From the NCBI RefSeq assembly GCF_045037415.1, contig NZ_CP173438.1: a stretch of DNA of 64,000 nucleotides. One strand, given 5' to 3'. How positions within the stretch are numbered: position 1 is the stretch's first letter; each line of letters starts with the position of its first letter. The notes beneath the pieces are model-generated. The model was not told the origin of the DNA. It saw only the letters and a program-made list of their open reading frames with translations, and searched no databases. Positions 38,971 through 40,347 of this stretch are shown here, one piece after another. Origin of the DNA: Escherichia coli (GTDB taxonomy: Bacteria; Pseudomonadota; Gammaproteobacteria; Enterobacterales; Enterobacteriaceae). The position numbers were made by a program, and so were the translations under genes.

Positions 38971-40347
38971 TTACTGACTTTGTTCCACCTTCGTATCCAG
39001 TAAAATGACATAGCGATTCAGCAACTGATTTAACCGGGTATCAATCTGCGTCAACAGCGTCGGCGAAATCTCTCCGGTCTGTTTTTGCTCTTCCAGTTGC
39101 CGAAGCAGTTCTTCCAGCGGCGGCTCCTTTAACGACTGCCGGATGCCGTACACCGCCGTTTTTAGTTCCGAACCGGTCAGATATCTCCCCTTACGTTCAT
39201 CCAGTGCATCCAGTTGTGCCGACAGGCGCTGTAGCTGACTCTGCGCCTGTGCGTAGCCATTCAGTGCCTCTGCGGACAGGGCGCTCAGTTCCCGCTGTTT
39301 ACGCCACTGCACGTTCAGCGCCCTGACCTGAGGATTATCCGGCCACAGGGCATCAAGCTGGCGTAGCTGGCGATATCCCTGCTCCAGCGGCCAGCGGGCA
39401 GGTAATTTGTTTAACTGCTCCAGTTGCATCTGACTTGCCGCAATTGTTCTGTCCTGAGCCAGCAGCGCCTTATCCTTTACATCCAGCTTTGCCAGTTCGC
39501 CGCTCTCCAGCGACTGCGGCAACGGCATGACAGACAGTTGTATTCGCTGGATTAGCGCGTCCGGCTGATTAAGCTGCGACCAGCCCCATAATCCTGTTCC
39601 GCCGAGACCGGCCATCACAACCATTCCGGCCATAAATATCGGCCATGTCCGCTGTCGGGAGATTTCAGGGGATGACACGGGTGGACTGGCATCCTTATCG
39701 TTTTGCTGAGCGGGTCTCGTTGCAAAAACCGGCTGTGGACTTTCTTCTGACTTTTTCGGTTGATTCATTTCCCGGCGGGGTAATTCAGGGGGAGTGATAG
39801 TGGTTTCCGCTCCCTGAGGCGCCAGCCGTTCCAGACGCAATGCGGTATTGCGAAACTGCCCGGCCAGCACATCCAGTTTCGTCATATGCCACAGTTCACA
39901 CTGTTGCAGCGTGGTTTCGATGGCGGAAAGATGCTGTACACAACGGTAGATCTGCGGCAGATCCTGATACTGAATATCCAGCGTTCTCAGTGCCTGCTGC
40001 ATTTTTTCTGTGACCCAGCTGAGCAGTGATATTCTGGAATGTACCTGTACCGGCCAGAAGTCAGCCCAGCGCTGGAGCAGTATATCCAGTGAGCCGAGTC
40101 CGTCTGCCATCCCTGCCAGCCCCTGCCGTCTGGTTATCGCCAGTACGTAACAGACCAGCGTCTGTAGTTCCACGCCATTTTGCCGGAACAGCGCGAGGCA
40201 GAGTTTTTCCACCTGACGCCAGTCCACATCCGGTCGGGCCGGGTGAGTCAGTTTACTCATTTCAGCCTGCAGTTCACCGGATTCCTTATAAGTACAGGGA
40301 TCGCCGCCCATGACGAACTGGCTGATAAAATTCGCGTTACTTGCCAT
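38971..40347 (-). CDS. ImpA_N-domain (TssA-like) membrane-anchored T6SS accessory protein
   Basis: 458 aa; N-terminal DVDWRQVEKLCLALFRQNGVELQTLVCYVLAITRRQGLAG pattern typical of ImpA_N; one TM segment (WPIFMAGMVVMAGLGGTGLW). Confidence 0.5.
   Translation of the reverse strand: MASNANFISQFVMGGDPCTYKESGELQAEMSKLTHPARPDVDWRQVEKLCLALFRQNGVELQTLVCYVLAITRRQGLAGMADGLGSLDILLQRWADFWPVQVHSRISLLSWVTEKMQQALRTLDIQYQDLPQIYRCVQHLSAIETTLQQCELWHMTKLDVLAGQFRNTALRLERLAPQGAETTITPPELPRREMNQPKKSEESPQPVFATRPAQQNDKDASPPVSSPEISRQRTWPIFMAGMVVMAGLGGTGLWGWSQLNQPDALIQRIQLSVMPLPQSLESGELAKLDVKDKALLAQDRTIAASQMQLEQLNKLPARWPLEQGYRQLRQLDALWPDNPQVRALNVQWRKQRELSALSAEALNGYAQAQSQLQRLSAQLDALDERKGRYLTGSELKTAVYGIRQSLKEPPLEELLRQLEEQKQTGEISPTLLTQIDTRLNQLLNRYVILLDTKVEQSQ

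Follow-up and report, generated by a model that had tools for sequence, protein, structure and literature searches.

[quoted passage not shown]

A T6SS cluster of Escherichia coli was found to encode at its distal end, beside its TssA, a further protein with a TssA-like N-terminus, which raises the question whether this is a second TssA or an accessory protein of another kind. Proteins named TagA (termed class B or TsmA by Schneider et al. 2019) are defined by an ImpA_N domain, followed by a hydrophobic segment and then by a VasL domain (PMC6745524). [quoted passage not shown] Deletion of tagA leads to excessive sheath polymerisation with over-long, bent or broken sheaths (PMC6745524), and long TssA proteins are usually accompanied by a TagA (PMC7896307).

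In the present study a stretch of 64,000 nt of E. coli DNA (contig NZ_CP173438.1; here called the window) was analysed, in which an earlier note, made from the letters alone, had pointed to this protein as a possible sheath-extension stopper or anchor of the TagA/VasL type. The gene at 38971-40347 is very probably tagA, coding for the accessory ImpA_N-family protein of the T6SS-1 cluster, and it is intact but probably idle in this genome.

Position of the gene in the cluster

The gene (38971-40347, minus strand) is an intact ORF with an ATG start codon and 458 codons' worth of protein; its product was recognised as a 458-aa TagA-family T6SS accessory protein by its Pfam domains and by DNA identity to annotated E. 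coli, and the gene coordinates given by PGAP in an identical genome are those of the window ORF. Upstream of it lies tssE (40347-40775, minus strand; ORF and annotation), whose stop codon overlaps the ATG of tagA as TGATG with one base in common, and an AGGAG is located 11 nt upstream. Therefore, tagA seems to be coupled in translation to a tssF-tssG-tssJ-tssE run as its last gene, and the remaining members of this run, likewise on the minus strand, are the lipoprotein gene tssJ (40779-41315; ORF and annotation), tssG (ORF limits 41296-42384, with the PGAP start at window position 42375) and tssF (ORF limits 42339-44138, with the PGAP start at 44099). The long canonical cap protein TssA (545 aa), which had been placed at 46499-48136 from the outset, was confirmed there on the minus strand by annotation and by TIGR03362, for which it scores 471.6 bits (cut-off 230.1), and it is presumed to be the binding partner of TagA.

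On its 3' side tagA is followed by a convergent phosphoglycerate dehydrogenase gene, which lies within a block of lower GC, and a simple scan found no terminator downstream of tagA. This block (32000-38700, 40-46% GC) is situated between amiC and the T6SS island and encodes, besides the dehydrogenase, a PRD-domain regulator, a PTS EIIC, a MalY/PatB-family protein and a KpsF/GutQ-family isomerase; apparently it is a sugar-utilisation islet of its own, oriented convergently to tagA.

Two further observations were made between tssF and tssA. At position 45589, in a PAAR-domain gene (about 45074-46493, minus strand), the window holds one extra A as compared to strain SK1144 and most other genomes, by which the coding sequence of a 472-aa PAAR-domain protein is broken into two overlapping ORFs (314 and 178 aa); among the complete genomes listed, only two (H19 and H20) match this site exactly, and the extra A may be a genuine, strain-specific frameshift or may have arisen as a sequencing error. 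The segment 44001-46000, which covers the 3' part of the same gene, has a GC content of 35% versus 55-58% in the flanking tss genes, and the small ORFs at 44659-45084 and 44175-44582 within it gave no family match. The segment looks like a swapped-in toxin-and-immunity cassette.

Domain architecture and relatives of the protein

The N-terminal part of the protein (residues 1-180; 39808-40347, minus strand) is a TssA-Nt1-like helical domain. The earlier note had read an ImpA_N pattern here and had named a profile search as the way to check it; this search was run and located ImpA_N (PF06812) at residues 24-112 (nt 40012-40278) with an i-E of 3.2e-11. It is followed by a linker rich in Pro, Glu and Ser (residues 181-233; 39649-39807, minus strand), delimited by composition, by a pLDDT of 31-40 and by gappy, unconserved alignment columns; disorder is predicted for it, and both its length and its sequence vary among homologues. 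Next come a Gly-rich hydrophobic helix, WPIFMAGMVVMAGLGGTGLWGWS, predicted to be a membrane anchor from hydropathy, AF2 and conservation (residues 235-257; 39577-39645, minus strand), and an all-helical VasL domain (PF12486; residues 306-448; 39004-39432, minus strand; AF2 pLDDT about 77-89), which was matched with an i-E of 8.5e-39 over positions 2-145 of the 147 of the Pfam model. In an alignment of 32 sequences from Enterobacterales the N-domain, the hydrophobic segment and the VasL motifs were found to be conserved throughout the family.

The C-terminus had also been described as coiled-coil-like and rich in Gln and Leu. The richness is real, as residues 257-458 contain 18.8% Leu and 13.9% Gln; the coiled coil is not borne out, since the AF2 model, built on the alignment of 32 sequences (mean pLDDT 72.5), presents this part as a bundle of helices of 14-29 residues each (pLDDT about 77-89) with no single long helix, and a crude heptad count along its longest helices was insufficient to call a coiled coil. 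The C-terminal region is a VasL domain rather than a demonstrated coiled coil. When the PDB was searched with the model, 6HS5 was the top Foldseek match; the VasL part retrieved only generic helical repeats by fold and no specific relative, and a sequence search of the PDB yielded no relative of the protein, its best hit being an unrelated dioxygenase (E 0.56). Profile matches to IglI, Dad3, FTA4 and syntaxin were rejected as sub-threshold or low-complexity.

The middle of the protein, residues 186-270, drew a weak match to the NCBIfam 'anti-sigma factor' model NF052375 (E 0.0045, 17 bits), which would make the protein a membrane regulator of the anti-sigma-factor type, unrelated to sheath dynamics. 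However, 17 bits are far below the cut-off of 100 bits, the match does not extend beyond the low-complexity linker and the hydrophobic helix, the domains on both sides of it belong to T6SS-specific Pfam families and were found with strong E-values, and translation of the gene is coupled to that of tssE. The identity of an anti-sigma regulator is effectively refuted by this domain content and is to be regarded as extremely improbable.

The question also arises whether the protein is a second, paralogous TssA of the cap or baseplate type that primes and caps sheath polymerisation, because 'a second, different tssA gene' has been listed for the T6SS-1 locus of ST131 (PMC10711316). The N-terminus indeed matches TIGR03362 with 66 bits and, weakly, TIGR03363 with 26 bits, it is 27% identical to the TssA of the cluster over about 130 residues, and sequence and model comparison alike show an N-terminal ImpA_N/Nt1 fold common to TagA and this TssA (TssA_L / TsaC). 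Both scores nevertheless lie far under the curated cut-offs (66.1 vs 230.1 for TIGR03362, 26 vs 160.85 for TIGR03363), and the TIGR03362 match extends over no more than positions 28-216 of the 476 of the profile, in its N-terminal part; therefore the N-terminal third of the protein is TssA-like and the rest is not. The middle and the C-terminal oligomerisation domains of TssA are missing and are replaced by linker, hydrophobic helix and VasL, so that a full-length equivalog match including the oligomerisation domain was not obtained, and a full-scoring TssA is already present in the cluster. A second TssA is thus very unlikely, and the gene listed under that description is tagA at 38971-40347.

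The closest point of comparison for the protein as a TagA is an intact ORF of 455 aa linked to the Sci-1 cluster of EAEC 042 (NC_017626.1, 4884070-4885437; L003:14071-15438), in which Pfam places ImpA_N at 8-109 and VasL at 306-449. From its position and its architecture we infer that this ORF is the TagA that has been studied experimentally. We take it to be EC042_4550, according to the gene count after tssE, and the Sci-1 TagA of EAEC 042 is reportedly the subject of Santin et al. 2018 in Nat Microbiol. A full-text literature search for EC042_4550 gave no match, and EC042 locus tags are absent from the text of PMC6450956 and from the supplements of PMC7896307. In the PGAP annotation the ORF is broken up into three pieces marked as partial pseudogenes (ImpA N-terminal, POTRA and VasL), a split which looks like an annotation artefact.

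Both proteins share the same Pfam architecture at the same positions, a hydrophobic segment (about 235-255 in EAEC 042) and nearly the same length (458 vs 455 aa), and in each genome the gene stands at the distal end of a T6SS-1 cluster, downstream of tssE; the two clusters agree in gene order, and each includes a long TssA. The Sci-1 end reads tssM-tssA-x-tssF-tssG-tssJ-tssE, then four unrelated genes, and then the 455-aa ORF, whereas tssE and tagA overlap in the window. The two proteins are only 33% identical (residues 14-449, 443 columns, E 9e-68), while the core proteins reach 56% for TssA, 66% for TssF, 54% for TssG, 43% for TssJ and 56% for TssE; thus TagA is the most diverged part of an otherwise orthologous T6SS-1. 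In addition, the helix in the window is Gly-rich and less hydrophobic (Kyte-Doolittle value of 1.51 vs 1.99 in EAEC 042), and the T6SS of the window genome is inactivated. A second 'VasL domain-containing protein' of EAEC 042 (384 aa, L003:45660-46814), downstream of the Sci-2 cluster, aligned marginally and with its N-domain only to the TagA of the window (E 4e-7).

A more distant likeness exists to TagA/VasL of Vibrio cholerae (VCA0121), which by its published description carries ImpA_N and a hydrophobic region that localises it to the membrane (PMC6745524), caps extended sheaths, prevents their over-polymerisation and interacts with TssA (PMC6745524; PMC7545191). It shares 19.3% identity with the E. 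coli TagA, TagA-EC (PMC6745524), and was classed as a separate form, 'TagAV' (PMC7896307).

As far as sequence can speak, the defining features of TagA are all present in the window protein, namely ImpA_N (PF06812) at the N-terminus, a predicted hydrophobic or transmembrane region after it, VasL (PF12486) at the C-terminus, a T6SS cluster with a long TssA of 545 aa and with tssE, tssJ, tssG and tssF adjoining, and full-length homology to the TagA of EAEC, the identity of the EAEC ORF being itself inferred. The reading as a stopper or anchor of the TagA/VasL type is accordingly supported by the architecture, by the homology to EAEC and by the T6SS-1 cluster with its long TssA.

The hydrophobic segment and membrane topology

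The single hydrophobic segment at about 235-257, taken as a TM segment by the earlier note, is borne out as a prediction: it is a helix in the AF2 model (residues 235-259, with a pLDDT of only about 55-60) and is conserved in homologues; 30 of the 32 aligned sequences have their most hydrophobic window here, and F238 and G241 are invariant. The best 19-residue Kyte-Doolittle window reaches 1.51, just under the classical threshold of 1.6, and with an Eisenberg mean hydrophobicity of 0.66 and a hydrophobic moment of 0.06 the segment is uniformly hydrophobic and non-amphipathic.

How TagA is oriented with respect to the membrane bears on what its VasL domain could touch. The segment is termed transmembrane in several papers, among them PMC6745524; its length of about 23 residues does not suffice for a re-entrant hairpin, and its uniform, non-amphipathic hydrophobicity also speaks for a membrane-spanning helix. 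Across the 32 homologues the 15 residues before it carry a mean of 2.6 K+R versus 0.75 D+E, and the 15 residues after it a mean of 1.1 K+R versus 1.4 D+E, so that by the positive-inside rule a single pass with the N-terminus inside and the C-terminus outside, and hence VasL in the periplasm, is favoured. [quoted passage not shown] However, this charge bias is modest, and in the abstract of Santin et al. 2018 the TagA of EAEC is reportedly described as a protein of the cytosol that is tightly attached to the membrane; therefore, a spanning of the bilayer by residues 235-257 stays a prediction. [quoted passage not shown] It concerns the mechanism and leaves the assignment to the TagA family unaffected; if true, a periplasmic VasL could account for two features observed in EAEC, the distal structure that is attached to the envelope and the 'non-canonical' distal contractions.

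Interruption of tssM, occurrence of tagA and its putative role

Whether TagA can act in this genome depends on the state of the T6SS. Alignment to the intact locus of SK1144 divides tssM (minus strand) into a 5' fragment of 1570 bp (52451-54020) and a 3' fragment of 1768 bp (48102-49869). Between them lies an insertion of 2,581 bp (49870-52450, minus strand) with TG...CA ends and a 5-bp target duplication, GCAGT (ACTGC on the other strand), which encodes IstA (513 aa; istA, 50716-52257) and IstB (249 aa; istB, 49955-50704) of the IS21 family and is called ISEc12 in other annotations. In ST131, where the locus is T6SS-1 (PMC10711316), clade C/H30 carries an ISEc12 in tssM with the duplication ACTGC and fragments of 1570 and 1768 bp, and its T6SS is non-functional (PMC10711316). 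Because the duplication, read on the other strand, and the fragment sizes are the same, the insertion in the window is the published ST131 clade C/H30 event; the junction of tssM and ISEc12 was detected in 327 of 5,426 complete E. coli genomes.

With tssM split by ISEc12, neither a membrane complex nor a sheath would be expected to form, and therefore TagA, although intact, is probably idle and most likely has nothing to act on here. Its allele is identical to that of strains with an intact tssM: the window from 18600 to 49869 is 99.994% identical to the chromosome of SK1144, with tagA at 100%.

The gene is widespread. A region of 2.2 kb around it was matched in 1,924 of the 5,426 complete E. 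coli genomes (in 1,293 of them at a coverage of at least 80%), RefSeq contains the same protein (100% identity) as WP_000157819.1, "VasL domain-containing protein", and the 100%-identical cluster in a large protein collection (P0001) has 823 member sequences. Homologues of 40-70% identity, nearly all of them with both Pfam domains, occur in Salmonella, Photorhabdus, Yersinia, Citrobacter, Cronobacter, Serratia and Pectobacterium. A variant of 478 aa from E. coli (P0005, 89 contigs) has a wholly unrelated C-terminus after an LDALD motif in the middle of VasL, which suggests a rearrangement or insertion in the tagA of some E. coli. The family, its architecture and its role have already been published, and the exact protein already has its entry in RefSeq and is encoded by hundreds of complete genomes.

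By analogy with the TagA proteins of EAEC and V. cholerae, the N-terminal TssA-like domain would lie on the cytoplasmic side, connected by the disordered linker of about 50 residues to the single hydrophobic helix, which would hold the protein at the inner membrane; TagA would act from the membrane to stop the extended sheath and to keep it in place. The proposed role of a stopper or anchor therefore stands as what the protein is built for, but it is unlikely to be in action in this genome, where tssM is disrupted by ISEc12. For annotation, tagA is the right name of the gene, which should not be entered as 'a second tssA', and it is more informative than 'VasL domain-containing protein'.
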